The notes under the pieces: generated by a model | The model's input: the letters and a program-made list of their open reading frames with translations, nothing else | What the model was told of the DNA's origin: nothing | Database searches by the model: none | Virus record (IMG/VR): IMGVR_UViG_3300036985_001643 | Span: 15,280 to 79,279 of that record | Length of the DNA stretch: 64,000 nt | Source: a virus | Direction: 5' to 3' (one strand) | Position numbers and translations under genes: made by a program | Part shown: positions 31,201 through 47,902 of the stretch, in pieces | Layout of the letters: every line of letters starts with the position of its first letter | Position numbering within the stretch: position 1 is the first letter of the stretch

Positions 31201-34200
31201 GAAATAGAAAGTGCATTTAAAACTGCATCAGATAGTTTTGCAGAACTAGCTGCTTTAGAACAAAGCACAAGTGTTGTAAAAACTCAAAAAACAGAATTAG
31301 AGAAAGTAGAACAGGTTAAAGATGTAGTAATAAATGGAGAAAAATATTCATATTATCCATTAGCTGTAAGCCAATCTTCAGGAGCATCTGTGTTAATAGC
31401 AAACAAAAAATCTATTTTAATATCAGACGATTATGGAAATATTTCTGAGTTAGAAACAGCTGAAGAAAAGATTACAGAAAACGATATTACAGCAGGTAAT
31501 ATTTTTTACATGACTGTAGAAAAAGGAGTTCCTAGAATTGTTTCAATAGAAGAAAGTTTACCTGAATTAGGTAATGAAAATGGTTTAAGAACTTATTCAA
31601 TGAGAATAACTTCTTATGACGCAGGAGGATCAAAAGAAATAGAGTCAGGAATTGGTGATTTAGGAAAAATAAAATCATTAGAAAGTAGTATTGGTAAAAG
31701 TGATCTTAGTAAAAAAGAATTAGCTTCAGAGTTAAATAAACTAGGAGTAAAGAAATTAAAAGTAAAGCAAGGACTTATTGTACCTACAATACCTTCAATT
31801 ACAAATCAAGGAAACTTTGAAGAAGATAATACTATTGAGTTACCTAACGATTTAAAGATAGATGCTGCTATTACTTTTACATCTAGTAATGTTTTTCAAA
31901 AAACTTTTAAATCTATAACTACAGCAATTGTAGCAAGTAAGTTGCAATTTACTAAACCTGGTAGATTTATAACTAAAGAAGGAACTTTAACTAAAGAAGG
32001 TGAAGAAATATTAAAAAAATTAACTTCTACTGCTTCTCCTAAAAATTTAAGAGAGTTAGATGCTTTAATTTCTAGCAACTTAGATAAACAACTTTGGGAA
32101 AACGAAAAAGAAAATAGTATAAACTCTATTGTTTTAGACGCTATTACTCAAAATAAAAAAGTAGCTAATTCGTTATTAAGTACAGGAAGGGTAAAATTTA
32201 ATTCTGAATATAGTAATGCATTTGTTGCTACTAGAGAAACTATTAGAGCTAAAAACAAAGAAAATATACAACAGTCCTTTAATAATATTCCAAGTTTAAA
32301 AGAATTAAATTCTCCTGCTTTAGAACAAACTACAGAGCAAGTTATTGCTAACTCTCCTATTCCTTCTGCTGAACAGCAAGTTGAAGAAGCTATTGATCCT
32401 GAAACAATCATAGAACAAGAGGCTATTCAAATGTTAGCTGATCATACAATTGAAGAAATTAATGGATTCTTAGACAATATTAATATAGGTTTAATCACTG
32501 AAGAAGATTTACAAGGACAATCTTTAGAACAAGTTAAACAAGCAATTAACAGAGCTAAAGAAATACATAAAAAGAATAGTGAGAAGAAAACAACTTTCCA
32601 ATTTCCTGGAAAAAAGAGTATTACCGTTGATGGTAACACTAAAGATTCTACGGATATCTCAGAGGATACTTTTGATTATTTAATTAGTCCTCTAAACGAA
32701 GAACAAGTAGACGAGTTAAACGCTGAGGTTGAAGCAATGATTATTAGAGGTGTAGACTCTGAGACACAACGTTCTTTAATTGCTTATATATCTGCAGAGA
32801 TTATTCAAAAAACTCTTGCTGAGAAAGAAGTAGGTGGAGCGAGAACAGTGAAGGTTAAAGATATAATGGATACCAATAAAGAATACTTTATTGCCTTAGC
32901 AGAGTACTACAAGGAAAACGGTTTACCTAACAAAGCTAAAAGATTAGAAGCTGTTGTAGAACAGTTTGATAAAGTAGATAGGTTAGTACAACAATACATG
33001 AGTCTTCTTACTACAGGTACAGTAACTTCTAAACCAAAAACAGAAAGTGAAGAATCAGTAGGATTAGAGAAGACTTTATACACTGATGATTGGGCGTTTA
33101 CTATCGATTCTAAATCTACAGCTTCTGGAGATTTAAAGAAATTCTTTGCTAATATACAAGCACAGGATAAAGACGGATTAAAACAAAACAGTCTAGGGTT
33201 AGAAGAGATAATGCCTTTTGATGCAGTATACGATACTCTTCACGAGATATTAGCTAACAAACCTGCTGACTATACAACAATGATGGAGATTCTTAAGTTG
33301 TATGCAGAGAATTTCCCTTGGATAAACTCTGTAGTAGAATCTATAGAAAAAGCTCCTGAACGTATTAAAAACGAATTTGTTTCAGATATGGCTAAACACC
33401 ATATAGAGATGTCGTTTGTAATGTGGGAAAGAAACAAAAACGGTACTTATAACCTACAACGTTGGTCAAGTAACTCTGCATCTAAAGAGAATAGATTAAG
33501 AGCGATGTGGCAATCTAACTTAAGAGGTGTAGGTACTTCTAGTAACATTGTAGTAGTTAATGACGAAGACGAATACGTATTTGACCACGTAGTTGTAGAT
33601 AGATTAATAACTCAAGCAGAGAAGTTTGCTGAGGATCCTTCTGTGGTTACTAACGATGATATTGCTAATTGGTTAGGTCAATTAGGTATTGTACTTGCTG
33701 ATGACACTTACGATGACTTACGTAACGGTTTATTCAACAATAAAGGTAAGAAAACCTTTAACCAATTATTTACTCATTCTCAAGGGTTATTTAAAGTACT
33801 TACTGCTAAATTAAAAACTATCAGTAATGGTAGACCTAAACCAGGAAAACCTAATACTAACTTAGTAGATAACGCTAATTTAATGACGGATAGTGTTGTT
33901 AAAGCATTGGCTAAATTAGACGCTACTAATAGTCTTAATACTTCTTCTAACTCTTTCCAATCGGGTGGTAAAACTGTTTACTCTTACGGTAACAATAACT
34001 ACTTAGTAAACCGTATGAGAGACTTAACGGCTCACAATGGAGAAAAGTTTATTAACGAAGAACTTATTAAGCATTTACAAGATACTTCTTTTACTAAAGA
34101 TAGTTTATGGTTAAAAGATATTACTTCTACAGATGCTTTAGGAGAAGCTGCTAGAAGAGAGTTAGGGTTAAACTACTTATCGTTAGAAGCGTTAAAGAAA

Positions 34201-36171
34201 AAGTTTACACCTTCTCAAGATGATCGTAAACTAAACAACTTGACACCTGCAGAACACGAGGTAATTAAGTTAGGTTTATTCTTAAATAATTCTGGACAAA
34301 CAATAGGTAAAGAAACTAGACGTAGTGTACAATTCTTTTATCCTACAATGTCGGATAAAACTACTATGTTGAGTATCACTGCTTTAGCTAGAGAGTTAAC
34401 ACTTGAAGAAGGAGTAATATCTAAAGACAACATCAAGTTGTTATTTGATGCTTTAGTACAACCGGAAATTAATCGTATTAGAGATAAACAGGCTTCTGAC
34501 ATTAAAGGTTACGAACCAAACTACTTTTACTTTCTTCCTGCTCTTAATACTCACCCTATTACTATTAATGGTAAAGAGAAAACAGTGTTAGACTTTGTTA
34601 AAGATAAAGACGATAGTATTTACTCACAAGAGTTTAAAGATCAAGTAGAGGCTAAAATTAAAGAAACATACGAACAGTTAGTAGAAGACAAATTAAAAGA
34701 CTGGAAAACTTTAGGTATTGGTAAAACAGTTAAAGACAATAAAGGAAGAGTATCTGAACAATATATGTTTTTAAATTCTTCTTACATGGCCGATGTAGCT
34801 AAAGGTATAGGAGAAGCTAAAGTTAAATATGCAGCAATGGATTACATATTTAACAGTTTAATAGCTAACTCTGAATCGTTTAAGTTATTTGCTGGAGATC
34901 CTGCGTTGTATGCTAAGTTTAAAAAAGATAAAACTTTACAACAAAACCTTGAAGAAACTTTTATCAATATTGGTAAACGTCTTGCTGGAGATATTGCTCC
35001 AGGTATAGAGTTAGCCAACAGTACTAACAATAAGTACCTTCAAGTATTCTTAGAAGATAAGGAGTTAAACAGTAACAATGTTAACGATTCTGTGCAGTTA
35101 GAGTACTTCTCTAAGATAATGAAGGACTATAAGAAAAACTATTCAGGGATAGAAGGATCGGATGCTCAAGAGTATACTACTTGGCAAGAACACATCTACG
35201 TAATGAAACAATTAGGTAGAATTACAGATAACCAATTTGAAGTATTTAATCGTAAGTTGACTGCTCAAACAGATAAAGCTGCTAAAGGTATTCCTTTAAG
35301 CAAAGCTGATAAACTTACATACGAAGAGTTAGGTTTAGTAATGCAACCTATCAAACCTGTATACGTAGGTAACATCGCTGTAACAGATGACAACGTAGAC
35401 AGAAGAATCTATATTAAGTCTTCTAGTTTCCCATTGATTCCTGAGTTAACTGCAGGTCTACAAATAGAGAAAGTACGTAAAGCTATAGAAAAGTTTGAAA
35501 AAGAAGTAGGTGGTAATATATCTTCAGATGGTAACCCTGCTTTTGTTAGAGCTTCTTTTGGTACAGCCAACAAAGTAGGAGCTGTTAAAAACGCAGTAAA
35601 ACTATTTGATGATAATGGTAACGTAAATGATAACTTAGAAATTAAAGAAGAAAACTCTTTAGTACTAAATCGTTCAAACTTCCGTATCCAACAAGACGTA
35701 CCTTACAAAAGAGAAAAGAACGAAATCAACGTAGGTTCTCAAGAGATGAAGTTATTGTTCGTTAACTTATTAGACGTACAAATCGATGAGAATCACACAG
35801 GGGAACAATTGTTAACTAGTTACAATCAAGCATATAAAGAATTGTACGAATATGCTAACGAAAAATTAGCAGAAAGATTAGGATTAGTTACCGAGACTAC
35901 TTCTACTCCAGAGTTAGTAAGTTTGTTAGAAACTCCTACAACTACTGCTGTTGCTGATACTCACGCATTAAAAGAATCTTTGAAAGGTAAATCTACTGTA
36001 CAAAATGTAATAGCTAAACAAAAATTCTCTGAAGAAAAAGGTGAAAATACAATAGATAGAGTTAAATTTATAGACAAAAACTTTGACAAGATTGTAGCAT
36101 CTTTACTTAAAGACGAGCAAATTAAAGTCTTATTCCAAGACGAGAATAACCAAAATAAAAAATGTGAATAA
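25246..36171 (+). CDS. Giant virion cargo protein (3641 aa) carrying the N-terminal part of the crAss-type virion RNA polymerase
   Basis: C-terminal ~1000 aa has KRLAG, DAQEY, QPIKP..YIKSSSFPL, NKVGA, RIQQD, GSQ.MKL motifs as recalled for crAss RNAPs; N-terminal hydrophobic Gly/Ala segments; central repeat-bounded inserts. Confidence 0.75.
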   Translation: MAKKKIVPPPPSPVRLQALSLDTKSDKTLGYNSDIIDEVGAGEEADSGVMQKHYAQKDANFFDPYEDYVDRKTLHGGQFDIEELNTIRATNQSNWEQAGHAVARVATNIVPQIISGFASMVDLPGYIDAEHAASNKIVNWAMDLKKEVDEDWFPIYEEKPGQSMSLSDPAWWMSRGSGLVESVGSFLAQGFGVGKVVSLGAKGIGSVLQGKKLFAALEAIPGVTSGANVAKRIGGATQSLTTAAMLNQSEAVIEATQVFNDTYKARLDEGWDYAKAKKAAAEAASTTMNLNRINILLNLSSATAFLKGQKYTRQLLKNPTLGHTSKELVKEGSQEAVEELINHVASKAGMAKGAEKNYTFENALNDIHSMEGLEAAFLGAIGGIAQTGGTKALEYSKYGPGSTTDESGVKISKVQDARNRYQQQQEVINELKDKGVKITDALNSVKEQLVFEEKLNAAYASGNVEEVKTLHAQMFENVAAKHFSAGTTEVLENLLKAESQKDPEEVGQDYIDRAKQAVKDLRTLENIYNNAEEYANVDEVYRNRASKLRAEKVVPEATTLQKESEFQLNQEVDAIAKKHMFDRERQVLIKKNGVVVDTETKTEKAPITYSLSDLENNTGDTDANKAVYEKFLAEVKALPSYESTNFYTEQLDALQKQIRDLDKDYKNITSDAYQKTAKAKAAEKTKVEQLTKDLPKVSTISEVEKMKESTTDKDFHKAADAKIEEIKKSNDAQAKQKKTQATVAELNTRIEKATEEELEGLLEEINNAELSQTHKTNLRNAYDRRASILNGTPVAVSPEEENPLGAFGFTNNNPNDTAEEIKREEESRATNLPKDLPNPKTETKDVEQQVADTATKLLETDTTRVTGQDTQGNLTYAYGKSTEGHNSGAVLSREFTQTENGGIVTREESTDDIENLQVLDPEVLQSGTPLIMEVDTDYIGPKYDPSSSTRETTSWVDRLAVLKAKAEQQGIPLTQLKEYIAEVPIKVTMEDGTTVFYVHDNAWFREENLDNTPDAIAQDKANNFKIREQIIKKGKVTTKVSYKSFGHLFRAYDGSKITTSEAMPDSDLALSVCKNESLDFTKGKLLPTTLQEGRTYAIVPVGPDTYLPVPLERAPITQEIVDSIMIAVEAHLSGDTENPVVQAIGNSNLGLDITTTEGLNKYVQQFIYLYPTEKQEGIENLLINQGGSKSTLSSSRPIIAITATGIEFGKPGVQMGSFTNQDGVKVQSFAVVLSKNFKKDAKTTKGLAALRAILESGNILSHTRLENLQKNLDSVILLDNQGATRTIKYSQQVKDSTVTNLRSINIGTEEAPKYVYTIQPTIKFDVAFAKLDKVKKASSTTKKKVTVPKVTVTPVATKTTIPVTTTVAVLQPNDLQLNVSATTKKAGMDSITKQDSSIESFDENKFIRVTKANADDVNGKYYAIDNGVLRIRINGKDAVSGRTGGATQISVKVPVGFNEKVFAEKLKNISHKDGVTTDKAVQQVVNDVRKAIIEAQSTSATTSTIEAKKADIERRRQTGTNVRGTTYKGETTEKDELKVTKYSEFFPDGKRISKGGRIMLPAEFIEEYNITDQDYLDSLEGATEIRIYEVRVGKDGRSGISIQGTFPEGNIETDVAGTELTALSETRDDIEAQKADVERRTTKVISSEIVEKGNRKGQTRTVTQTNSIKDVEGTIVSVTEYEAKVGDTTITLGGKSMTVKEFKEEFPLDEDYEEIFASWPDLNDDTIITVRKVKRTPTNSRYKTVVNIFNPVLGGEMDITIKKDDTKYDAELAALKQPVAGKQVQIDDIERRQRVADIITSQFELGVELPKILETLAEQGYVEKINNSAFFKQSVGRDAIVFNIDGAIVPIYRSSEGTSSKTKGKWYPFFFNAGDWLVKGMADSYKDGYNNPIIKQILNSLNTNYTYDKPIAKVNGNNKEVLVLLGLEGFDEENNGIYDYQNYLAASIVLKDWQSKLGNIDVSGYQEYLDGALSGLIKANPTLKSEIESAFKTASDSFAELAALEQSTSVVKTQKTELEKVEQVKDVVINGEKYSYYPLAVSQSSGASVLIANKKSILISDDYGNISELETAEEKITENDITAGNIFYMTVEKGVPRIVSIEESLPELGNENGLRTYSMRITSYDAGGSKEIESGIGDLGKIKSLESSIGKSDLSKKELASELNKLGVKKLKVKQGLIVPTIPSITNQGNFEEDNTIELPNDLKIDAAITFTSSNVFQKTFKSITTAIVASKLQFTKPGRFITKEGTLTKEGEEILKKLTSTASPKNLRELDALISSNLDKQLWENEKENSINSIVLDAITQNKKVANSLLSTGRVKFNSEYSNAFVATRETIRAKNKENIQQSFNNIPSLKELNSPALEQTTEQVIANSPIPSAEQQVEEAIDPETIIEQEAIQMLADHTIEEINGFLDNINIGLITEEDLQGQSLEQVKQAINRAKEIHKKNSEKKTTFQFPGKKSITVDGNTKDSTDISEDTFDYLISPLNEEQVDELNAEVEAMIIRGVDSETQRSLIAYISAEIIQKTLAEKEVGGARTVKVKDIMDTNKEYFIALAEYYKENGLPNKAKRLEAVVEQFDKVDRLVQQYMSLLTTGTVTSKPKTESEESVGLEKTLYTDDWAFTIDSKSTASGDLKKFFANIQAQDKDGLKQNSLGLEEIMPFDAVYDTLHEILANKPADYTTMMEILKLYAENFPWINSVVESIEKAPERIKNEFVSDMAKHHIEMSFVMWERNKNGTYNLQRWSSNSASKENRLRAMWQSNLRGVGTSSNIVVVNDEDEYVFDHVVVDRLITQAEKFAEDPSVVTNDDIANWLGQLGIVLADDTYDDLRNGLFNNKGKKTFNQLFTHSQGLFKVLTAKLKTISNGRPKPGKPNTNLVDNANLMTDSVVKALAKLDATNSLNTSSNSFQSGGKTVYSYGNNNYLVNRMRDLTAHNGEKFINEELIKHLQDTSFTKDSLWLKDITSTDALGEAARRELGLNYLSLEALKKKFTPSQDDRKLNNLTPAEHEVIKLGLFLNNSGQTIGKETRRSVQFFYPTMSDKTTMLSITALARELTLEEGVISKDNIKLLFDALVQPEINRIRDKQASDIKGYEPNYFYFLPALNTHPITINGKEKTVLDFVKDKDDSIYSQEFKDQVEAKIKETYEQLVEDKLKDWKTLGIGKTVKDNKGRVSEQYMFLNSSYMADVAKGIGEAKVKYAAMDYIFNSLIANSESFKLFAGDPALYAKFKKDKTLQQNLEETFINIGKRLAGDIAPGIELANSTNNKYLQVFLEDKELNSNNVNDSVQLEYFSKIMKDYKKNYSGIEGSDAQEYTTWQEHIYVMKQLGRITDNQFEVFNRKLTAQTDKAAKGIPLSKADKLTYEELGLVMQPIKPVYVGNIAVTDDNVDRRIYIKSSSFPLIPELTAGLQIEKVRKAIEKFEKEVGGNISSDGNPAFVRASFGTANKVGAVKNAVKLFDDNGNVNDNLEIKEENSLVLNRSNFRIQQDVPYKREKNEINVGSQEMKLLFVNLLDVQIDENHTGEQLLTSYNQAYKELYEYANEKLAERLGLVTETTSTPELVSLLETPTTTAVADTHALKESLKGKSTVQNVIAKQKFSEEKGENTIDRVKFIDKNFDKIVASLLKDEQIKVLFQDENNQNKKCE
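29758..31260 (+). repeat. Dispersed repeats (IEA.KA)D(I/V)ERR and (A/T)EL(A/T)AL bounding variable domains
   Basis: gat(a/g)tagaaagaaga at 29776, 30151, 30607; cagaacta(g/a)ctgcttta at 30098, 30554, 31241. Confidence 0.85.
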
Positions 36172-36644
36172 TGGAAAAATTACTTACTGACGTAGAGCAA
36201 AAAGAATTAAATAAGTTTGGTAAATTAGAGTTAACAGCTTCACAAGCTTACTTACACCTTACTAATAGAATGAAGACATTGGGTTACTTTGGTGCAGAGA
36301 AGTTCTTTGCAGGTGAATCTAACGATGAAAGAGAGCACTATGCTAAACATGAAGACTTTATGAACAAGTTTAATTGTGAATTAAGTGTTGAAGCATTGAG
36401 CCCTATTGCTTCTGATGTTAGTAACATTAAAGAAGCTTTAGAAATGGCTTACCAAATGGAGGTAGACTTATTAAACGAGTACGAAAAGTCTTGTAAACTT
36501 CCAGAGTTATCAATAAAAGTTGTACTTTTGTTACAAGAGTTTGTTGAAATACAAAGTGGTGCAGTTGGAGAATACGGAGATCTATTAGCTAGATTAACTC
36601 TAACAGACAACATGTTATTATTCGATCAAGAACTAGGAAACTAA
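36171..36644 (+). CDS. ftn: Ferritin (ferroxidase centre apparently intact)
   Basis: E20, Y27, E53-x-x-H56, E97, Q128 spacing of a ferritin four-helix bundle; G.F.GA.KFF and EYGDL motifs. Confidence 0.85.
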   Translation: MEKLLTDVEQKELNKFGKLELTASQAYLHLTNRMKTLGYFGAEKFFAGESNDEREHYAKHEDFMNKFNCELSVEALSPIASDVSNIKEALEMAYQMEVDLLNEYEKSCKLPELSIKVVLLLQEFVEIQSGAVGEYGDLLARLTLTDNMLLFDQELGN

Positions 36645-36654
36645 AAGTACAATT

Positions 36655-39600
36655 ATGGCTTGTCAATATTTTGTAAACGGAGAATGGATCTCTGAGGAAC
36701 AGTTTAAAGAAGTTTTAAACAATGGTTTATTAGATAATTTAGTAGCCAACGGTACTGTTAAAGAAGAAGGATTTCCCGTAGATAATACTAAACTCCTTAA
36801 AACTGAGACAGTTACTACTACTAAAACAACTGTACCTGTAGAAAAACTAGCAGCAATCTTAGCAAAAGAAGTGAGTACTCGTTCAGGGTATCCATTAAAC
36901 ATGTTAAGTGCTCTAGAGTTGAAAGAAGACAAGTCAGACTTTAAAATTCCTTTATGGGCTTCTCCTTACGCAAGTAAGTTTGAGTCTTTATTAACTTCTT
37001 TAGTAAGTAATAAAGTAGTTAAACAAAAGTTTGCTGGTACATCAAGTGTATTAGGTTCGGAAGAAGGGTTTAGAATTAAACAAGGTGACGAAGCAGCAGG
37101 TAGTTTAAAGGACTCCTCTATTGTATTTTCAGACAACTTTGATCCTGAGAAAGGTTTACAACCGATGAGGGTAGATCCTAAAACAGGTAAAATATTACCT
37201 GCTCAAATAATGTTACCTTTTAAGTTTAGAGACGAGTCAGGTAACATATTGTTTATCAACGATTTCCTTAAATTAGATTCTTCAGGAAGACCTTTAAGAA
37301 CTCCAGACGGAAGAGTAACTATTGACGATAGTAAATTACCTGCTAAATTAAGACAGTTATTTGGTTTCCGTATTCCTACACAGGAGCGTAACTCTATGGC
37401 TGCTGTAGAAATAGTAGGGTTTTTACCTGAAGCAATGGGAGATTTAGTACTAGCTCCTAGAGATTTTACTAAACAGATGGGTTCGGATTTTGACGTTGAT
37501 AAGTTGTACAGTTACTTGTATAACCACTTCTATAAAGACGGTAAATTATACACTAATTTCCCAAGTGATAAGAAGACTATTAAAAAACTAACAGATGCTG
37601 CTAAAGAACATTTAGCTACATTGAAAAGTTCTTTAAAACTAAATAGTGCAGAACAAGCATTGTTAAATGCTTACATTGATAACAAGTTAGAAAAAAACGA
37701 TGATAACGATCAAGACGAGTTGCTTACTAAAGCTACTACTCTTATCGCTAGACTTACTAATTCTCCAATAATGGAGGAGATAGAAAACGTTACTAACGAT
37801 TTATCTATTTACAACAGAGCTTACAAAGCTTCTCGTCAAAATAAAATATTAGACATTCACTTATCAGTGATGTTGAGTAATAACCCTGAGGTTATTAAAT
37901 CTATTATTGCATTAGATTCCTTTGGAGATTTTGAGCAATTAGCTCAAGACTTATATAAAGTAAGAAGTGAGCGAGGTTTAATTCCTCCTATTACCACTAT
38001 TCTTTCAGATACTTATCAAAGAACTAAATACATTAACGCTACAGCAGGTAAAACTGGGGTAGGTTCTTTCTCTTTAGATTCTACTTTTAATGCATCTGCT
38101 CAAGGTAAAGAGTTGACCATCATCAATATGGACGATGAGACTCAAACAAATGTATTTGGTACCCCTATAGAACCTAAGAATCCTACTGCTGCTGAAGTAT
38201 TAGAAGCTAATATGACTGTTGCTGCTTTTGGAACTAACGTTTCTAAAGGAGATTTATCAGACAAATATACACTACGTTCTAGAAACTTAATCAACAAAGC
38301 TAAAGAAGAAGGTAGAGAACTTACAGAGGAAGAAAAAGATTCTTTAAAGATGAAGTCTACTATTATTAGATCTTTACAATCTACAGCTGTGGATAATGAA
38401 AAAGCTCAAATATTAGATAAACTTAACATCAACGATCAAACTATGGATGCTGTTAGAGCCCTTACTATATTAGGGTTTGAAGAGAAAGAAATAGTAGGAT
38501 TGATAACACAAGAGATTATTTGGGAGTTTACTGCAGCATTAAAGGATAACGGTTCTTCACTGACTCCTTTCCAAGCTAACGCTGCAGAAACTTTATTTAT
38601 TGATTTAGTAAAGAAATACGATCCTGAAGGTAAACTAGCAGAATTAAAACCTTACGAATTAGAAGCTTTACAAAGTGCTACTAGTGAGTCATTAATGAGT
38701 GACATCAATACTCAAACGTTACAAGAGTTAAGCGTAGGACCAACACCAGATGCTAATCTTAGACAGTTAGCTGCTTTAGCTAAATTCCTTAAACTTACTC
38801 AAATAGGTAAAGATATTAAGACCTTACAGTCTACTATAAATACTGATTCTAAAGGTGTTCCTAAATCTTTAGTAGAAACAGATGCTAAAGTAAAACAAAT
38901 AGAAAGGTTAGCTGCTTCTAACATCTTTAATGCTACTAAGTTGTTAGGAGAATATGAAGGATCTAAATTAGTTACACCTACTACTCTAAATGGTTTTGCT
39001 TCTAAATACGGTACTATGTTTGCAGATACTATCTACAAACAATATTTCCCTTATCATACTACAGGTTTTAAAGTATTAGTAGATGAGTTACTACAATATA
39101 TACCTAAAGGTAAAAATGCTTCGTTAACTAAACAAGCAGAGTTACAATTAGAGTTAATGGACGCTGTTAAGTCTTTCCTTTATGGTAATGCTAATACAAA
39201 CTTGTTTACAGAAAACCCTGATAGTGAACGTGCTAGATTGTTTATAGACACTAAAACTAACAAAAGTTTAGCTACTATACTACAGTCAGTTTCTGAAGAA
39301 AAGTGGTATACTTCTAATGGTTTCCTTAATAAGTTATCGTTAGACCAACAAAAGAATGGTCAAGTTTCTAGAGTAAACTTCGAATCTGCTTCAGGAGAAA
39401 ACTTAGACGAAAGAGATATCTATGACGGGTTTAACTACTTGTTATCTAAGAATTTCCCTATTGGTACTTTTAACGGTATCGATTATACTTCTCGTATGTT
39501 GGCTCAAGATTTAGTAGCTTCAGCGTTCTTAGAAGGAGGTCAACAAGGTTCTAAACAATACTTGAAGTATGTACCTACTGCTTACCTTAAAACTATAGGT

Positions 39601-42600
39601 TTTGGAGATTACTTATCAAATACTTCTTTTAATTACCTTGATACTTTCTTAGGTAATTTAAGCCCTGAAGGACAGTTAATGTATAACAATCCTTCTAGTT
39701 TTATGAGACAATACTTCCAAAATAATGCTGATAAAGCTAAAAAGGTATCGTTGTCTGACTTACAAGGTAAAATATCAGCTGTTCCTGAAGGATACTTTAC
39801 ACTAAACGAAGAAGCTCTAAAGGACAATATAGTAGAGATTACGGATCCTTACACAGGTGAACCAACTACTACACAGACTAAGTTCTTATCTATCTATGAT
39901 AGTAAAGTACCAGGTAAGTATGCATTATTCGAGTTTGACGCTGTAGATAGATTGTACCGTAGAATACCTACTTTACAAGGTTCTTTCGGTTTTGTATCGT
40001 ATAACTCACAAGTTGGTACACCGTTACCTATTGAAAAAGCTAACAGAACTGTTAAACAAGAAGGTAACCAAGAAATACCAGGTTATACTTTACCTCATAC
40101 ACCTACTACTCCTACAAAGTCTTTTGATGTAAACGTGGTTAACAATACTGTTAAACCAGTAACTGCTAATACTTTACCTATTTCAAAAACATTGTCTGGT
40201 ACTAAAGAAGCACTAGACGATTTAATTAATAATATACAATTTGAAGACGGAGTATCTAGTTTAAACAGACAGTTGTTAAGTTCTTTAAGAGATTTACAAT
40301 TACCTGATAACTTTAAAGTAGTGTATGATGATACTTTAAGTAGTAGAGGAGGTTATAGTTATGACAAACAAATATTGTTTATTAACTTAAAACATGAAGC
40401 TAATCAAAATATTGACGGTTTAGCTACCGCTGTTGCTCACGAATTAATACATGCTTTAACAAGTGAGGCTATTTATGAATACCAAAAAGGTGATTTAAGT
40501 AAGTTAACAGCTGACCAAATTAAAGCTATTGAGTCTTTAAAAGCTTTACAAGATAAGTATATTGATCATTTAAAAACTAAAGGTGAAGCAGGTGCTTTAC
40601 AAGCATTTAAAGATAAATATGAAGCTTGGGTAGCACGAGGTAAAACAGGAAAAGTAGGAGTTTCTGCAGAAGATATTTCTAAGTTTTATGCAGGTATTAA
40701 ACTATCAGAGTTTGTTACTATGACTCTTAGTGATCCAGGTTTTCAACAACATCTAGCTTCTGTTATCGATGAGTCAGGAAAATCTCTTTGGGAACAAATT
40801 AAAGAAGTTTTAGGAGAATTGTTAAATACTTTAGGTTTAGATATTAAACCAGGTTCTGCTTTAGCATCTGCTGTAAAAAGCTCTATGGATTTAATTACTG
40901 CTAACCAACAAGCAATGGGTACTAAATTATTTGTTACTAAAATTGATCAATTTAACTACTCTTACGATGCTGTTAATAACGTTGTTATCCACAATGCTAA
41001 AACAGGTGATAAAGTAGAAACTAACGATACACAAATTAATAAGGTATTAGTACAATATGCATTAGCTAATAATAAGGAACAACGTGTGTTTAATGGTTCT
41101 ACTTATGTTGCTATTGCTGATAGAATATTAAACATTAAAAACGCTAACGAAGTAAGTCTAGAAACTTGGGAGTCTGCTAAATCTACTAAGCCATCTACTA
41201 GTATTAAACCTACAATAGATACATCAAGAGAATGGAAAGGTGATTTAGAATCAAGACCTGTCTATACTTCTGAAGGAGTTAATACTATGAGAACTACTTC
41301 TGCTAAAGCTGATGAACATTTTGGTAATCCGTTTAGTGAAGCAGGCTATGGTAATACTATAAAAGTAGCTAGCATAGGTGCGGCTGTCAGAATGTATAAG
41401 GATTGGTTATTAAACAATGCTGTAACTGAATCAGAAATTGTAAAAGGAAATGTTAGTGACTTAGCTAAATTTGATAACCAAAGAGCTTGGATACTTAATC
41501 AAATTAATCAAGGTAAACTTGATGGAGCTACATTGCTTTATGCTGGTAAATCTGAAGCAAGAGGTCAAGGTATGCACCCTACAGCATTAGCTGAAGTAGT
41601 AGAACAATTAAGAAGTAAATCAACTCAACCATCTACTCAACAACAAACTCCAGTAAGTGAAGTTAAAGAAGGTGTGCAAGAAATATTTGAATCTAATCCT
41701 GAATTAGCTAATATAGGTACACCTGAACAATACTCTCAATATCTTGATACTATATTTCCTGATAGTAAAGTAAAAGATATTCTTTATCATGGTACAGCTT
41801 CTCCTAACACTATTGAGAAATTACAACCTCAAAATGATAGAATATACTTTAGTGATAATCTTACAGCTGCAAGATATGCTAGTTGGGATCAAGATAATAG
41901 AGTACAATTTGAACCAGGTTCTCAAACAAAGTTACAAGTAATACCTGCTATTATAAATTTAACAAATCCTGTAAAATTATCAGACGTTAACTTTAAAGAA
42001 ACAGAGACTAATAAAGAAGGAGACGGTATTATTGGTACTAATATAGAAGATCCATTAGGAGGTAGAGAAAATCAAATAGTAGTAAGAAATGCTGATCAAG
42101 TTTATGAATTAGGTACTAAACAAGATTTAGAAGGATTTAAAAAGTTTATTGCTAAAGATACTAAATACGAACTATTCCCAGGTGTATATGCTAATCAAGG
42201 TCAAACAGAAGCTTTAGATAAGTTAACAGATTTCTTAAGCTCTGATAAACAAGCATTCTTACTACAAGGAAAAGGTGGTACAGGTAAAACTACTATTATT
42301 AAAAAGATTGTTAAAGAAGCTCAAGCTCAAGGTAACAGTGTATTAGCAATTGCTCCTACTCATAAAGCTAAAAAAGTATTAGCTAAATCATTAAACGATC
42401 CAGGTATTAAGTCTACTACTTTAGCAGCTGCTTTAGCTATTAAACTTGATGAAACTACAGGTAAATTTACACCTGATGAGTTTGCTAGAAAAATGGATAA
42501 AGTTCCTATTACAAAAACATCTTTAGTAATTATTGATGAGTCTTCTATGATTTCTGATAAACTATTAGAAGAGATTAAAGAGTTACTACCTAAAGGTACT

Positions 42601-43752
42601 AAGATTATTTTTATGGGAGATAAGGCACAGTTACCTCCTGTAGGTCAAGAGAAAGACAGTGCTGTATTTGATGTTAAAAATAACTATACATTAACAGAGA
42701 AAATGCGTCAAGCTGCTACTTCTCCTATTATTAATATAGGAACTAAAGTAGCACAAAACGTAGAAACTACTGGACAAAGAGTTGCTAATCCTATTACAAA
42801 AGAAGATAGAGTAAATGCATTTGATGAAGTAAGTGGTTCTTCTATAATTTGGGAGGACAGTGAAAACAAAGCTTTGGATACCTTTGTAGAAGATATAAAA
42901 AATGCTAATGGTAATGTTGATTTTGCAAAAGTTATTACTTTTAATAATCAAAACCACAATAGTCCTCAATCTGTAAAAAGTTTAAATACTAAGATTAGAT
43001 TAAAATTATACGGAGAACAAGCAAATCAACAACAATTTATACCAGGTGAGATATTAACAGCGTACGATACTTTTGGAGGTGAAGATATTTTATTTTACAA
43101 TAGTGAAGATCTTATAGTAAAAGAAGCTACTGAGCCAGCAAGAAAAACAATTTCTGTAAATGTTACTTCAAGACAACAAGGTAATCGTTCTAAAAGTTTT
43201 GAGTTTAATATAATAAATCTTACTCTTAAAAACGAAGAAGGTAAAGATATAACAGTTCCTATTATTGCTGAATCAAGTAAGGAAGAGTATCAAAGAACGT
43301 TAAGTCAATTGTTTAAAACAGATAAACAAATGGGTTATGCTTTAAGTAGTAAATTTGGTAATTTAGAGTATGGATACGCTATCACTTCTCATAAAGCCCA
43401 AGGATCTACGTATACTAATGTTTACGTGATGGAAGACAATATTATGGGTAGTTCTAACGGAGGTTCTATGAAGGCTAAAAGTCAATCATTATACGTAGCT
43501 GTTTCTAGACCTACTACTAAGTTGGTAATGGTTAGTCAAAAAAACAACCAAAATATCACAGAGGGTACTTTTAGTATGAGTAACTTAGGAGATATCGATT
43601 TAGGTAATTATACAGATAAAGATAATGCTTATAACAACGATGATTACGAAGCTTATTCTAGAGAAATGTATAACAATGACCAAGATCAATTGTTAGCAGA
43701 ATCTCCAATAAGTAGAGATAGATTAGAAAATTATTTGTTACTTTGTAAATAA
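36655..43752 (+). CDS. Virion RNA polymerase catalytic half fused to zincin, DUF4326-like, ADP-ribosyltransferase-like and Dda/RecD-like SF1B helicase domains
   Basis: GFRIPTQ and GSDFDVDK (DxDxD, 37486-37500); HELIH (40438); GNPF (41323); YHGT..IYFS..NQIVV (41785 on); GKGGTGKT, IIDESSM, GDKAQLPPV, HKAQGST, LYVAVSR. Confidence 0.85.
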   Translation: MACQYFVNGEWISEEQFKEVLNNGLLDNLVANGTVKEEGFPVDNTKLLKTETVTTTKTTVPVEKLAAILAKEVSTRSGYPLNMLSALELKEDKSDFKIPLWASPYASKFESLLTSLVSNKVVKQKFAGTSSVLGSEEGFRIKQGDEAAGSLKDSSIVFSDNFDPEKGLQPMRVDPKTGKILPAQIMLPFKFRDESGNILFINDFLKLDSSGRPLRTPDGRVTIDDSKLPAKLRQLFGFRIPTQERNSMAAVEIVGFLPEAMGDLVLAPRDFTKQMGSDFDVDKLYSYLYNHFYKDGKLYTNFPSDKKTIKKLTDAAKEHLATLKSSLKLNSAEQALLNAYIDNKLEKNDDNDQDELLTKATTLIARLTNSPIMEEIENVTNDLSIYNRAYKASRQNKILDIHLSVMLSNNPEVIKSIIALDSFGDFEQLAQDLYKVRSERGLIPPITTILSDTYQRTKYINATAGKTGVGSFSLDSTFNASAQGKELTIINMDDETQTNVFGTPIEPKNPTAAEVLEANMTVAAFGTNVSKGDLSDKYTLRSRNLINKAKEEGRELTEEEKDSLKMKSTIIRSLQSTAVDNEKAQILDKLNINDQTMDAVRALTILGFEEKEIVGLITQEIIWEFTAALKDNGSSLTPFQANAAETLFIDLVKKYDPEGKLAELKPYELEALQSATSESLMSDINTQTLQELSVGPTPDANLRQLAALAKFLKLTQIGKDIKTLQSTINTDSKGVPKSLVETDAKVKQIERLAASNIFNATKLLGEYEGSKLVTPTTLNGFASKYGTMFADTIYKQYFPYHTTGFKVLVDELLQYIPKGKNASLTKQAELQLELMDAVKSFLYGNANTNLFTENPDSERARLFIDTKTNKSLATILQSVSEEKWYTSNGFLNKLSLDQQKNGQVSRVNFESASGENLDERDIYDGFNYLLSKNFPIGTFNGIDYTSRMLAQDLVASAFLEGGQQGSKQYLKYVPTAYLKTIGFGDYLSNTSFNYLDTFLGNLSPEGQLMYNNPSSFMRQYFQNNADKAKKVSLSDLQGKISAVPEGYFTLNEEALKDNIVEITDPYTGEPTTTQTKFLSIYDSKVPGKYALFEFDAVDRLYRRIPTLQGSFGFVSYNSQVGTPLPIEKANRTVKQEGNQEIPGYTLPHTPTTPTKSFDVNVVNNTVKPVTANTLPISKTLSGTKEALDDLINNIQFEDGVSSLNRQLLSSLRDLQLPDNFKVVYDDTLSSRGGYSYDKQILFINLKHEANQNIDGLATAVAHELIHALTSEAIYEYQKGDLSKLTADQIKAIESLKALQDKYIDHLKTKGEAGALQAFKDKYEAWVARGKTGKVGVSAEDISKFYAGIKLSEFVTMTLSDPGFQQHLASVIDESGKSLWEQIKEVLGELLNTLGLDIKPGSALASAVKSSMDLITANQQAMGTKLFVTKIDQFNYSYDAVNNVVIHNAKTGDKVETNDTQINKVLVQYALANNKEQRVFNGSTYVAIADRILNIKNANEVSLETWESAKSTKPSTSIKPTIDTSREWKGDLESRPVYTSEGVNTMRTTSAKADEHFGNPFSEAGYGNTIKVASIGAAVRMYKDWLLNNAVTESEIVKGNVSDLAKFDNQRAWILNQINQGKLDGATLLYAGKSEARGQGMHPTALAEVVEQLRSKSTQPSTQQQTPVSEVKEGVQEIFESNPELANIGTPEQYSQYLDTIFPDSKVKDILYHGTASPNTIEKLQPQNDRIYFSDNLTAARYASWDQDNRVQFEPGSQTKLQVIPAIINLTNPVKLSDVNFKETETNKEGDGIIGTNIEDPLGGRENQIVVRNADQVYELGTKQDLEGFKKFIAKDTKYELFPGVYANQGQTEALDKLTDFLSSDKQAFLLQGKGGTGKTTIIKKIVKEAQAQGNSVLAIAPTHKAKKVLAKSLNDPGIKSTTLAAALAIKLDETTGKFTPDEFARKMDKVPITKTSLVIIDESSMISDKLLEEIKELLPKGTKIIFMGDKAQLPPVGQEKDSAVFDVKNNYTLTEKMRQAATSPIINIGTKVAQNVETTGQRVANPITKEDRVNAFDEVSGSSIIWEDSENKALDTFVEDIKNANGNVDFAKVITFNNQNHNSPQSVKSLNTKIRLKLYGEQANQQQFIPGEILTAYDTFGGEDILFYNSEDLIVKEATEPARKTISVNVTSRQQGNRSKSFEFNIINLTLKNEEGKDITVPIIAESSKEEYQRTLSQLFKTDKQMGYALSSKFGNLEYGYAITSHKAQGSTYTNVYVMEDNIMGSSNGGSMKAKSQSLYVAVSRPTTKLVMVSQKNNQNITEGTFSMSNLGDIDLGNYTDKDNAYNNDDYEAYSREMYNNDQDQLLAESPISRDRLENYLLLCK

Positions 43753-43762
43753 AGAAGACAGT

Positions 43763-46700
43763 ATGAGTGCAGCAACATGTATCAATAAAAATACCCCAGA
43801 GTATAAAGCATTGCTAAGTCAAGTAGGAAGCGAAAGACTAGCAGTGTTAGCTATATTAAACAATGGTTACGAAGTACCAGATGTACGACCTATTACAGAG
43901 ATTAAGAATGCTATCAAGTTTAAATCTGAGGTAGAAAACTTTGCAGGTATTGCTGCTAACTTAAGAAGATATAATACTAAAAATAATACTTCCCACTACT
44001 TTACTTTTACTAAAGCTTTTGGTAATACGTTTAAACTAGAGTTGAAGTATAACTACTTACCTGTTGACTTAGAAAGACAACGTCAGCGTAAAGCTAGACA
44101 AGGTGATCCTATGTATATGGTGGTAGGGTTTAATCAACAAGGTTTTAACCAAGTGTATCCTAACAATAATAGACAAAGTAACCTTTTTGAAGGAGCTATT
44201 ACAGGTAAAGAAACACCTACTACATCTACTTCTACTATAGAGGAAGAAAGAGATTTAGGTTTTTACAATGGTGATGCTGCATTACTAGAACAAGAATCTA
44301 GAGACATGGATTTCTTAATAGAAGGTTCAGGAAAGAAAGTAGTTGACTTAGAAAAACGTAGAGAAAGAAAGATTAATGACGAGATTATTAAGCAACGTCA
44401 GTTACTAAAAAATGTAACAGATGCTGATTCTCTACGTTCGATTATTAATAAGATTGAGGGACTAAGAAAACAATTAGACCAAGCTGAAGGAAGAGTAGTT
44501 GTAGCACAAAACATTAATGCGTTTGAGGACGTATTACAATTTGGTAATTCTCAAGTTAATGAGATACAAAAATTACTTAGCAATCCTGCAGTTAGTTACG
44601 AAGATGTTTATTATGCTCAAAAAGTATTAAACCTTTGGTTAAAAGCAGGTGACTTCTCAACACCAAGTGAGGAACATATTTTCCTAGACGAATACGAGTT
44701 TAATACTCCAGAAATACGTAGTGCTTTTAGAGAGATAGCTTCTAAAGCATCGGACTTACAAAGTCACTTAACAACACTTAAAACTAACTATGTATCTAAC
44801 TTTGTTAGACAGTACACAGATGGTAAATTAAGTAAAGAAGAAATCTTTAAGCATTTAAAACAAGTTGGTAAAATAGGTACTACTACCTTAAACTTATCTC
44901 GTCACGATGACGCAATGTTACAAGCTATCTTCTCTGCGGTAGAACAAGCAAATATGAATGCTAAGTTAGAAGCAGGAGAAGTATGGGAAAAACTAGATGT
45001 ATTATCTAAAGCTTTCTTAAAGAAATCAGGAGGTAATTTTGATATACTTAAACAAGTAGACGAGAACGGTTTAGAAACAGGTAGAGCAGTATCTAGATTT
45101 GCTACTAGTTTCTACGAGACTAGAAACCAATTGATGAAGAATGCTTTCTGGTCCAGAGACGCTGTTACGGGTAAGTTAAAAAAAAATGATGCCGGTGTAA
45201 AAGCTTATTATGATTGGATTAATAAGAATACAGCATCTTTTGATCCTAGAATATTGCTCCCTGATAGTAACCTAGAAGACGGAGTTATTCCTGAAAGTGC
45301 ACTATATAAGAGAGTTAAGTTTGACGAAGGTTCTAGACAAAAACATATTGCCGAATTAAAGTCTCACTTAGGAGAAAAAGGTTACGAGTACTACATTAAA
45401 AGAGTAGAAGCTAAGATAGAGAAGTTTAAGATTCGTAGAGAAGTAGCTTATTCTTCTATTCAATTAGAAGAAGGACTATCTCAACAAGAGAAAGACAGTT
45501 TGTTTGATACTTGGCAAAAAGAACATTCTCCTTATTGGGGTATGGATATGGCAGAAAACCCTGTTAGTAGAAGAAAAGGTAAAGATTCTTTCTATTCTCC
45601 TAAAGGTATTAGAGAATACGTAGAACAAGTTCCTAAGAAAACTGTAGACGGTGTTACTACTAAGTGGTACGATCAAAACTTTGCTAAGATAGAAGCTGAC
45701 GAAGATTTATTAGCTTACCATTCTTTCATGATGGAAACGTTAAATACCTTACGCTATACTCTTCCTCAACAGAAACAAGCATTATTAGGAGTAGGTGTAT
45801 TACCTACTATCCAAAAAAGCTTAATGGATATCTTTCAGGAAAAAGGAGTAATGATGGGTATAGTTCCTTTTTGGGACAAAATGAAACAGTTGCAAACTAC
45901 TACAGATTTTGCTACTACTGTACACTCTGACGTTGATTCTTTTACAGGTGATATTGAAAAAAATATTCAACTACAATTTATCGAAGATACTAGTGCTAAA
46001 GTTCGAGAAATAGTAAAAGAAAAAACTATAGCTCATAAACAAGCAACTGGGAAACCAGCTACTACAGCAGAGATAAACCAATTTACTGCTGAAGCTAGAG
46101 ACTTCTTATCAAAAAATAAGTCTTGGGATATCACTAAGATCTTAAAAGCATACTCTTTAACAGTATTGGCCCACAAACACAAATCTTTTATAGAACCTCA
46201 AATACGTCTTGCTGAACAAGCGTTTAAGAGTCGTAAACAATTGGTTACCAATAAAGCAGGTGAAGTACAGAAGGATGTTCAAGGTAACGTATTAGTACAA
46301 GAAGGTAACGATAACCTTAAATCTGCATTAGAGTTTTTCCTAGATTCTGAATATTGGGGTGTAGGAGGACGTAAAGTAGAAGGTGTTACTAAAACTAAGT
46401 TATACACTAAAGAAGAAACTGCCCACAAGAAAGAGTTAGAAGCTTTACTTGCTGAAGCTACTACAGATGAGGATAAACAATTCCTACAAGATCGTATTGA
46501 TTCTCTAGGAGGTTTCCGTACTATGAGTGGTGTAGGAGATGCAGCTTTAAAGTATATGACACTTAAAGGTTTAGGGTGGAACTTTTTCTCAGCATTTTCT
46601 AATATTGGTTTTGGTGCTATTTCTAATATTATCCAAGCTTCGGACGGTAGAGAATACTCAGCTAAACACTTAAGAGACGCTTATTTACTTGTTACTAATT

Positions 46701-47902
46701 CTATAGGTAGAAACGCTTCCTTCAATACTTGGGAAGGTGTTAACGGTAATGCTTTAAAAATTAGAAAATTAATGGACAAGTGGGATTTATTACAGACATC
46801 CAACAAAGAGATGTTTGATACATCTAACAAGTCATCAATGAGTAAGTTAAACAGGTTTGGTCCTTTTACCTTACAAGAACGTTCAGAGTACTTAAATATT
46901 GCTCCTGTAATGGTAGCAATAATGATGGAGTTCCCTGCTACTAACCCTGATGGTAAAGCTACTACAATGTGGGAAGCTTACGACATGTCTACTGGATCTT
47001 TAAAAGAAGGATACACTACTACTACCGATGAGGTAAAGATGTTCCAAAAGATTAAACGTGTAGTAGAAATGAATCATGGTGATTACAATAATGCACTACA
47101 AGTTAAAGCTACTATAGGTGGTAGAGCTCTTTCACAATTTCGTACTTGGATGTTTGAAGGTTTTGCTAACAGATTTGAAGCAGAAAAAGTAGATTACGCA
47201 TTATCTTACGGATTAGACGAAGCTTATGTACGTAAAGGTAGATACAAAAGTTATACTAAAGGGCAACTTAATGTAACAGGTGCTGCAATAGGTACTATGA
47301 TTCTTCCAGGTATCGGAACAGCTGTAGGTGCAGGTGCAGGTTATCTGGCGGGTAAATTTTTTGGCATGCAGACTGAAGAGTCAGCAATGGGGGATACTTT
47401 GTACACTCTTAAACATTTAGCTCGTAAGTTAATGTTTAGTAAGAGTAGAAGTACAGATTTTAACGAAAAGTTTTCTAAAGTAGATGCAGCCAACATGCGT
47501 AAAAACATGACCGAATTATACATAATTTTAGGTCTTATGGGGCTTGCTTTAATGTTAAAAGCTTTAGCCGGAGGAGACGATGAAGAAGAAGATGCATCAT
47601 TCGCTACTAACTTCTTATTAAACCAAACTATTCGTCTACGTACAGATATTGGGTTCTATACTAACCCTTTAGAGTTTGAGAAACTTACTAAAACAGCTGT
47701 ACCAATGGCTCAATTAGTATCTGATGTTACTCAAGTTATGAGTGACATAGGAACACACTTAAACGATAAAAAAGATGACGAAGTATTTAATTCAGGATCT
47801 TTTAAAGGTGTCCCAAAATGGTTAATACATACAGGACAATTACTTCCTGGACCTGCTCAAGGTATACGTTTGTATAAAACAGGTGACAAAGTAATAGATT
47901 AA
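43763..47902 (+). CDS. Virion cargo/ejection protein (last large cargo gene)
   Basis: 1379 aa, helical, C-terminal hydrophobic segments and QFRTWM motif; synteny after RNAP. Confidence 0.6.
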   Translation: MSAATCINKNTPEYKALLSQVGSERLAVLAILNNGYEVPDVRPITEIKNAIKFKSEVENFAGIAANLRRYNTKNNTSHYFTFTKAFGNTFKLELKYNYLPVDLERQRQRKARQGDPMYMVVGFNQQGFNQVYPNNNRQSNLFEGAITGKETPTTSTSTIEEERDLGFYNGDAALLEQESRDMDFLIEGSGKKVVDLEKRRERKINDEIIKQRQLLKNVTDADSLRSIINKIEGLRKQLDQAEGRVVVAQNINAFEDVLQFGNSQVNEIQKLLSNPAVSYEDVYYAQKVLNLWLKAGDFSTPSEEHIFLDEYEFNTPEIRSAFREIASKASDLQSHLTTLKTNYVSNFVRQYTDGKLSKEEIFKHLKQVGKIGTTTLNLSRHDDAMLQAIFSAVEQANMNAKLEAGEVWEKLDVLSKAFLKKSGGNFDILKQVDENGLETGRAVSRFATSFYETRNQLMKNAFWSRDAVTGKLKKNDAGVKAYYDWINKNTASFDPRILLPDSNLEDGVIPESALYKRVKFDEGSRQKHIAELKSHLGEKGYEYYIKRVEAKIEKFKIRREVAYSSIQLEEGLSQQEKDSLFDTWQKEHSPYWGMDMAENPVSRRKGKDSFYSPKGIREYVEQVPKKTVDGVTTKWYDQNFAKIEADEDLLAYHSFMMETLNTLRYTLPQQKQALLGVGVLPTIQKSLMDIFQEKGVMMGIVPFWDKMKQLQTTTDFATTVHSDVDSFTGDIEKNIQLQFIEDTSAKVREIVKEKTIAHKQATGKPATTAEINQFTAEARDFLSKNKSWDITKILKAYSLTVLAHKHKSFIEPQIRLAEQAFKSRKQLVTNKAGEVQKDVQGNVLVQEGNDNLKSALEFFLDSEYWGVGGRKVEGVTKTKLYTKEETAHKKELEALLAEATTDEDKQFLQDRIDSLGGFRTMSGVGDAALKYMTLKGLGWNFFSAFSNIGFGAISNIIQASDGREYSAKHLRDAYLLVTNSIGRNASFNTWEGVNGNALKIRKLMDKWDLLQTSNKEMFDTSNKSSMSKLNRFGPFTLQERSEYLNIAPVMVAIMMEFPATNPDGKATTMWEAYDMSTGSLKEGYTTTTDEVKMFQKIKRVVEMNHGDYNNALQVKATIGGRALSQFRTWMFEGFANRFEAEKVDYALSYGLDEAYVRKGRYKSYTKGQLNVTGAAIGTMILPGIGTAVGAGAGYLAGKFFGMQTEESAMGDTLYTLKHLARKLMFSKSRSTDFNEKFSKVDAANMRKNMTELYIILGLMGLALMLKALAGGDDEEEDASFATNFLLNQTIRLRTDIGFYTNPLEFEKLTKTAVPMAQLVSDVTQVMSDIGTHLNDKKDDEVFNSGSFKGVPKWLIHTGQLLPGPAQGIRLYKTGDKVID

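Follow-up and report, generated by a model that had tools for sequence, protein, structure and literature searches.

In a 64,000-nucleotide stretch of viral DNA (IMG/VR virus record IMGVR_UViG_3300036985_001643, positions 15,280 to 79,279; this whole stretch is called the window below), we found three giant proteins, encoded in series, that are almost free of cysteine except at the ends where one chain faces the next. Judged by homology and gene order, the three chains are the virion RNA polymerase module of the Crassvirales, which comprises g067-g066-g065 in phage phi14:2 and gp47-gp50-gp49 in crAss001. The terminal cysteines recur across this order, and their gain and loss follow the splitting and fusion of the chains. 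We suggest that inter-chain disulfides at the junctions probably replace peptide bonds and link the chains head to tail. The parts of the module in the window and the four terminal cysteine codons are the following.

13674..17972, plus strand: muzzle protein of 1432 amino acids with 8 cysteines, at the start of the cargo block (Pfam crAss_MUZ, 6e-149, and crAss_MUZ_C)
17975..22399, plus strand: Cargo protein 1 homologue of 1474 amino acids with zero cysteines (Pfam crAss_CARG1, 1.3e-27; blastp to crAss001 gp45)
22415..25207, plus strand: cargo-block open reading frame (ORF) of 930 amino acids with zero cysteines (cysteine count)
25246..36171, plus strand: chain 1, 3641 amino acids, a fusion of a g067/gp47-like protein with the polymerase N-half (blastp; phrog_16227)
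36163..36165, plus strand: codon of Cys3640, the second-to-last residue of chain 1 (..KKCE*; cysteine count)
36171..36644, plus strand: ferritin-like ORF of 157 amino acids with 2 internal cysteines, in the polymerase split (Pfam Ferritin, 2e-10; Rubrerythrin, 6e-06)
36655..43752, plus strand: chain 2, 2365 amino acids, the polymerase C-half with a long extension and an SF1 helicase domain (motif alignment, PDB, Pfam and PHROG)
36661..36663, plus strand: codon of Cys3 of chain 2 (MAC..), in the recurrent head peptide MxC[KQE]Y..NG (cysteine count)
43744..43746, plus strand: codon of Cys2364, the second-to-last residue of chain 2 (..LLLCK*), the sole invariant column of the C-terminal alignment A2
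43763..47902, plus strand: chain 3, 1379 amino acids, g065/gp49-like (blastp to phi14:2 g065 and crAss001 gp49)
43778..43780, plus strand: codon of Cys6 of chain 3 (MSAATC..; cysteine count and alignment A3)

Cysteines were counted computationally in the called ORFs of the cargo set, which we defined as the five plus-strand ORFs at 17975-47902 (9,789 amino acids). This set contains five cysteines (0.05%), compared with 0.4-5.6% for the remaining ORFs in the window, and thereby resembles proteins of the N4 gp50 type, in which cysteine frequency is well under that of the rest of the proteome. Four of the five are close to the facing ends (1-6 residues away) of the proteins with 3641, 2365 and 1379 residues, and the 1474- and 930-residue proteins have none. 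Chain 2 is limited to C3 and C2364 and chain 3 to C6. The outer ends of the three-chain series (MAKKKIVP.. at the N-terminus and ..KTGDKVID* at the C-terminus) are cysteine-free, as is the point in chain 1 where the g067-like part is fused to the polymerase. The fifth cysteine, C1073 of chain 1 (nucleotide 28462), is internal and sporadic. For the window only, the probability that at least four of five randomly placed cysteines fall no more than six residues from the four facing ends is 1.8e-10. An earlier note on this DNA had reported five cysteines in about 9,800 residues; the computed count agrees exactly, and all five nucleotide positions and the cysteine-free outer ends given there proved right. 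The facing-end layout that it described also stands, but the genes of chains 1 and 2 do not abut: the 157-residue ferritin-like ORF, missed there, lies between them.

Several matches underlie the assignment of the module. In chain 1, residues 90-1911 align with phi14:2 g067 and residues 3127-3510 with g066 788-1127; in chain 2, residues 48-319 align with g066 1162-1407 (blastp). The catalytic motif GSDFDVDK occupies chain 2 residues 276-283, is invariant in alignment A1 and has the DFDxD form of the two-barrel polymerases. Chain 2 also aligns with PDB 6VR4 residues 1325-1450 (E 9.7e-12). The g067-like and g065-like flanks stand in order, downstream of the genes for the muzzle and cargo protein 1 (blastp to g067, g066, g065, gp49 and gp50; Pfam). 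The 930-residue ORF had no match in Pfam, PHROG or NCBIfam, and most of chain 1 matched nothing in family searches of the same three collections. A PDB search with the C-terminal 641 residues of chain 1 and a megablast of positions 36000-44000 against phage records were also without a match.

The pattern was then surveyed across the Crassvirales in 80 diverse, non-identical loci, the window counted, which were fetched with a profile of the polymerase C-half. ORFs in these loci (numbered with the prefix L) were called from the first ATG and classified with blastp, using seed sequences of the g067, polymerase and g065 types, and three loci (L044, L045 and L084) were re-read with table 11 before counting. 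Cysteines were found on both facing ends at 72 of the 76 junctions between module chains. By contrast, they were found at none of the 67 C-ends of g065-ending chains and at one of the 34 N-ends of g067-starting chains, the latter being an ORF-calling artefact (junctions versus outer ends, Fisher P = 3e-63, uncorrected for shared ancestry). The terminal enrichment that the earlier note had proposed to look for in this order is thus borne out, with 1 of 101 outer ends set against the junctions. Over the 410,626 residues of the module, cysteine frequency is 0.077%, compared with 1.04% in neighbouring ORFs.

In aligned termini that are otherwise 12-21% identical, the cysteine is, M1 aside, the only invariant column. 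Likewise, M1 and the cysteine alone are invariant among 42 g065-like N-termini (alignment A3), and the C-terminal cysteine of chain 1 is conserved in L008-L011 and L019. An additional split in L069 is accompanied by an additional cysteine pair. In phi14:2, g067 ends in its sole cysteine, the cysteines of g066 are limited to C3 and C2179, and C3 is the single one of g065. The crAss001 proteins have C2339 only (gp47), C5, C1334 and C2404 (gp50) and C5 only (gp49). At the level of sequence, the cysteine observation stands and extends throughout the order.

The gene for crAss001 gp47 lies on the strand opposite gp50 and gp49, yet the terminal cysteine pattern is retained. A DNA-level signal at the junctions was rejected on the ground that the pattern survives this inversion. 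Such a signal belongs to a broader neutral explanation, in which selection against cysteine is confined to the parts that travel through the tail, and the TGY codons at the ends are there by chance or as a junction signal. Cysteine depletion of ejected proteins is indeed a known general trend (N4 gp50 and DEV gp71-73; PMC11445570). Against this explanation, the terminal cysteine is invariant amid variable neighbours and lies 0-14 residues from the chain end, other gene junctions and the outer ends are without cysteine, and the arrangement in the window has a chance probability of about 2e-10. We consider neutral tolerance or a DNA-level signal highly unlikely.

The four exceptional junctions comprise a start miscall (L054), a LAGLIDADG interruption (L083) and two cases with an intervening ORF (L020 and L032). 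In L083 (4446-13321), which belongs to one gut crassvirus lineage, a 255-residue LAGLIDADG/helix-turn-helix (HTH) ORF interrupts the polymerase about 205 residues before the catalytic motif. Since the new ends lack cysteine, we read this interruption as a probable mobile intron and not as a genuine split of the protein. Extra ORFs of 525-697 residues without a family match follow the polymerase chain in L017 (15684-17261), L020 (15134-17227) and L032 (16570-18324). Those of L020 and L032 separate the polymerase chain from the g065-like chain, and it is mainly these three loci that deviate from the rule without an explanation. In L004 (10795-11512), a chain ending in ..KQICQ* is followed by a chain starting MPVTCKYIIN.. 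that stops after 61 residues and resumes in other frames; this break is a frameshift or an assembly error.

Three loci, L044, L045 and L084, had been candidates for polymerase and g065 fusions with a cysteine doublet. We rejected this assignment because a single in-frame stop stands at the junction, and under table 11 each locus fits the three-chain pattern perfectly. In L045, this stop is directly followed by an in-frame ATG. The lone junction stops in these loci indicate that automatic recoding guesses can produce false fusions. The polymerase gene of L051 (5351-13222) has nine in-frame TAG codons, which indicates true TAG recoding.

The module occurs in both split and fused forms, which provides a natural experiment on the function of the cysteines. 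At the boundary between g067 and the polymerase, the cysteine pair is present in the 31 split loci and in none of the 27 fused loci, with no discordant cases; the single ORFs of these 27 loci have no cysteine at the N-terminus or at the fusion. At the boundary between the polymerase and g065, cysteines are present in 60 of 63 separate cases, and the junction cysteines are gone in 14 fused loci. Thirteen fusions of polymerase and g065 that have no remaining junction contain zero cysteines, and in these the g065 part mapped to the very C-end. Eight of them are complete (4,730-5,542 amino acids) and five are cut at the contig end (2,312 to >6,892 amino acids). A FastTree phylogeny of the polymerase core shows at least 8 switches between the split and the fused state at the first boundary and at least 10 at the second. 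Independent contrasts were concordant in 5 of 5 and about 6.5 of 7 cases, respectively, and none were opposite. As the gain and loss of cysteines tracks splits and fusions, the cysteines follow chain ends and not homologous positions.

These results also bear on the possibility that the terminal cysteines act singly, by binding portal, inner capsid or tail proteins or by serving as a mark for packaging or processing, with the chains remaining unlinked. The many disulfides in crAss001 structural proteins would be consistent with such a role, as would the fact that docking of the termini could not be shown. However, cysteines acting singly would leave the facing pairs, the cysteine-free outer ends and the loss of cysteines on fusion, including in the zero-cysteine triple fusions, unexplained. 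We therefore regard this explanation as improbable.

The first of the two junctions in the window lies inside the polymerase itself. The cut falls between gp66 residues 1127 and 1162, within the Connector domain (residues 1095-1238) that joins the two double-psi beta-barrels of the polymerase, and this split has its own new cysteine pair. Relatives L008-L011 and L019 have the same split, and the ferritin-like ORF in the gap is syntenic in L008, L009, L010 and L019. The cysteine pair at this position is present in the window clade (the window, L008-L011 and L019) and in 0 of 74 unsplit polymerases. The remark in the earlier note that a link between the chains would explain why the RNA polymerase tolerates being split is reasonable. 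The g067 fusion and the ferritin-like gene had been overlooked there. Three points are new for this window: the Connector split and the cysteine pair that belongs to it, the fusion with g067, and the ferritin-like gene residing in the gap.

Relative to gp66, the split is bordered by about 130 and 47 additional residues (blastp). Together with the layout of gene half, small ORF and gene half, they would suit a split intein or fractured gene with the cysteines as splicing nucleophiles. This reading was rejected, as no Hint or intein Pfam domain was found in either chain and the cysteines are misplaced, being 1-2 residues from the ends and not at the start of an N-intein of about 100 amino acids or after a C-intein. 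Intein blocks were not found either, the intervening ORF is ferritin-like and not a homing endonuclease, and the cysteine rule holds at junctions other than single-enzyme splits. A split intein is thus extremely unlikely, and disulfide linkage of the two halves remains our preferred reading of the Connector split.

The ferritin-like ORF measures 157-166 amino acids across the clade (L008 9508-9993, L009 9489-9989, L010 9519-9995 and L019 9517-9990). Its nearest clusters consist of viral ferritin-like proteins, and virion cargo and iron or redox chemistry are possibilities for its role. In chain 2, residues 1847-2295 (window 42193-43539, plus strand) form an SF1 helicase domain of the Dda/RecD/PIF1-like type, with matches to Pfam AAA_30, PIF1 and UvrD_C_2 and to the PHROG Dda-like helicase. 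It is fused to the polymerase C-half chain, a presumably ejected protein that is free of cysteine apart from its ends. The corresponding chains of L010 and L011 are much shorter (1664 and 1509 amino acids) and have the same C-terminal tail, so that the helicase insert is variable.

A solved counterpart of the cysteine pairs is found in cyanopodophage A4 (Anabaena phage A-4L). In its pre-ejectosome, cryo-electron microscopy (cryo-EM) revealed the C-terminal helix of gp27 docked in gp26 with a Cys1715-Cys5 disulfide (PMC12002296), which that paper presents as a structural detail of one phage and not as a rule. In the A4 GenBank record, Cys1715 is the sole cysteine of gp27 (1717 amino acids), Cys5 is the sole cysteine of gp26 (1114 amino acids), and the neighbouring ejection protein gp29 is cysteine-free. 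As in A4, neighbouring genes in the window encode large, presumably ejected proteins with sole or nearly sole cysteines at the facing ends. A4 differs in having one junction only, compared with two or more in the crassviruses, and in having no polymerase and no known fused forms. Comparison of A4 gp26-gp29 with the crassvirus module gave no blastp match at E 0.1 and an hhalign probability of 0.1%. The absence of sequence similarity suggests an analogy in mechanism, not family membership.

Two further systems are relevant here. The modules of phi14:2 and crAss001 share with the window homologous proteins, gene order, the DFDxD motif and the terminal cysteine pattern. The window differs from them by the g067 fusion to the polymerase N-half, the Connector split, the ferritin-like gene and the appended SF1 helicase. 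The papers on these modules are silent on the cysteines of these proteins; packaging in the virion was shown by mass spectrometry for phi14:2 and crAss001 only, and fused polyprotein forms were noted previously and assumed to be cleaved (bioRxiv 10.1101/2020.03.07.982082; PMC10172136). Full-text searches of a limited literature library returned no paper on crassviruses that mentions the cysteines. In the N4-like phages (N4 gp50; DEV gp71, gp72 and gp73), the giant virion RNA polymerase and its partners are likewise nearly devoid of cysteine, a depletion that the authors ascribed to virion exit and passage through the periplasm (PMC11445570). Unlike the split modules, these proteins have no cysteine at all and no reported terminal pairs, and they resemble the fully fused, zero-cysteine forms of the crassviruses.

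The A4 structure also helps to discriminate between kinds of linkage. The earlier note had proposed that the facing cysteines join the chains through disulfides or shared metal sites. Head-to-tail joining is strongly supported by the comparative data, that is, by the junction counts, by the absence of cysteines at outer ends and fusions and by the A4 analogue, while a shared metal site is less likely because each end has one cysteine and no conserved histidine. More generally, the chains could be linked by thiol chemistry other than a disulfide, either through a metal shared by two thiolates and carboxylates or through another covalent link. The comparative pattern speaks for joint action of two cysteines and not for a particular chemistry, an acidic residue often occurs about 7 residues before the C-terminal cysteine, and the split harbours a gene for a ferritin-like iron protein. 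However, there is a single cysteine per end with no second cysteine nearby, and the sole solved case with this signature, A4, is a plain disulfide. We consider a non-disulfide link unlikely.

Most likely, each junction is closed by a disulfide, formed by C3640 (chain 1) and C3 (chain 2) at the first junction and by C2364 (chain 2) and C6 (chain 3) at the second. Although translated separately, the chains would then make up one covalent thread in the virion, about 7,400 residues long, which corresponds to the single polyprotein encoded by other crassviruses. Cysteine is otherwise kept out of ejected proteins of this kind. The disulfides may form after the termini have docked, in the particle or once it is released from the cell, and they could hold the chains together during packaging and ordered passage through the tail. 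They might also set the stoichiometry of packaging, as the earlier note had suggested. Reduction in the host cytoplasm would then free the polymerase halves and their partner proteins. Inter-subunit disulfides do occur in the tail and capsid of crAss001 virions (PMC10172136).

Several points weigh against disulfide linkage. In all crassviruses, the bond is deduced from gene sequences. The cytoplasm in which virions are produced is reducing and gut crassviruses are anaerobic, which leaves the place and time of oxidation unexplained. No clear rule in the tail and head peptides would bar mispairing, for instance between chains 1 and 3 or into closed circles. In L020, L032 and the similar L017, one side has no near-terminal cysteine and the last cysteine lies 129-397 residues from the end, and some gut lineages (L070, L082 and L084) have many internal cysteines. 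Finally, the survey relied on first-ATG ORF calls and FastTree, and its sequences are related. Neither Erv1/ALR nor thioredoxin genes were found in the record of the window, which is about 62% complete, and the Erv1 model matched no control genome either. Co-folding of the last 120 residues of chain 2 (A2) with the first 400 residues of chain 3 (A3) gave run scores of 0.56, 0.12 and 0.02 and was used neither for nor against the linkage.

The N-terminal cysteines lie within two types of head peptide. Type A, MxC[KQE]Y..NG..[ST]..E[LF], is found in the window on the polymerase C-half (36655-36720), and type B, M..C[PI]NKN..[EW]K.L, on the g065-like chain (43763-43830). In L053 the order is reversed, with type B on the polymerase and type A on g065. 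In phages with two junctions, the types are found at different junctions and are able to swap places. Like portable modules, they occur on different, non-homologous chains in the window, L015, L047, L053, L055 and L062. The two head types could give pairing specificity; no clear matching rule between head types and upstream tails was found. We tentatively propose that crassviruses may be able to divide their giant ejected polyprotein into separate chains because short cysteine-bearing head and tail peptides covalently re-join them in the particle, with the two head types setting the order, and that a thread of about 7,400 residues may exit whole and be dismantled by reduction. This more detailed proposal is a possibility that we hold with some doubt.

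Cysteine-rich facing ends were also observed elsewhere in the window, in three consecutive plus-strand ORFs without a family match (2-541, 553-1803 and 1822-2838), whose ends read ..DCGCGGNC*, MCKDCKGI.. and MGACKCNI... The start MCKDCKGI.. holds the only two cysteines of its 416-residue protein (553-1803). Similar facing ends rich in CxC follow the module in L039, L046 and L048. These ends may represent a second type of inter-chain clasp, based on disulfides or metal, in tail or fibre proteins. A plus-strand ORF of 500 amino acids at 5033-6535 contains a YadA-head repeat (Pfam, 8e-06) and probably encodes a protein of the tail fibre or a spike.

It is an open question by what means podoviruses package giant proteins, put them in order and eject them; the protein concerned here is the polymerase with which crassvirus infection begins. 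In the view of those who solved the crAss001 structure, extrusion order probably depends on the packing and interactions of the proteins (PMC10172136). Bridging of chain breaks by cysteine pairs would be a concrete mechanism that can be tested at the bench, for the most abundant phages of the human gut. The cysteine pair rule would explain why fused and split gene layouts can replace one another, and a prediction of the rule is that active polymerase is released by a redox trigger. Sole terminal cysteines may also offer a simple mark by which linked ejection proteins can be recognized in the sequences of uncultured phages.

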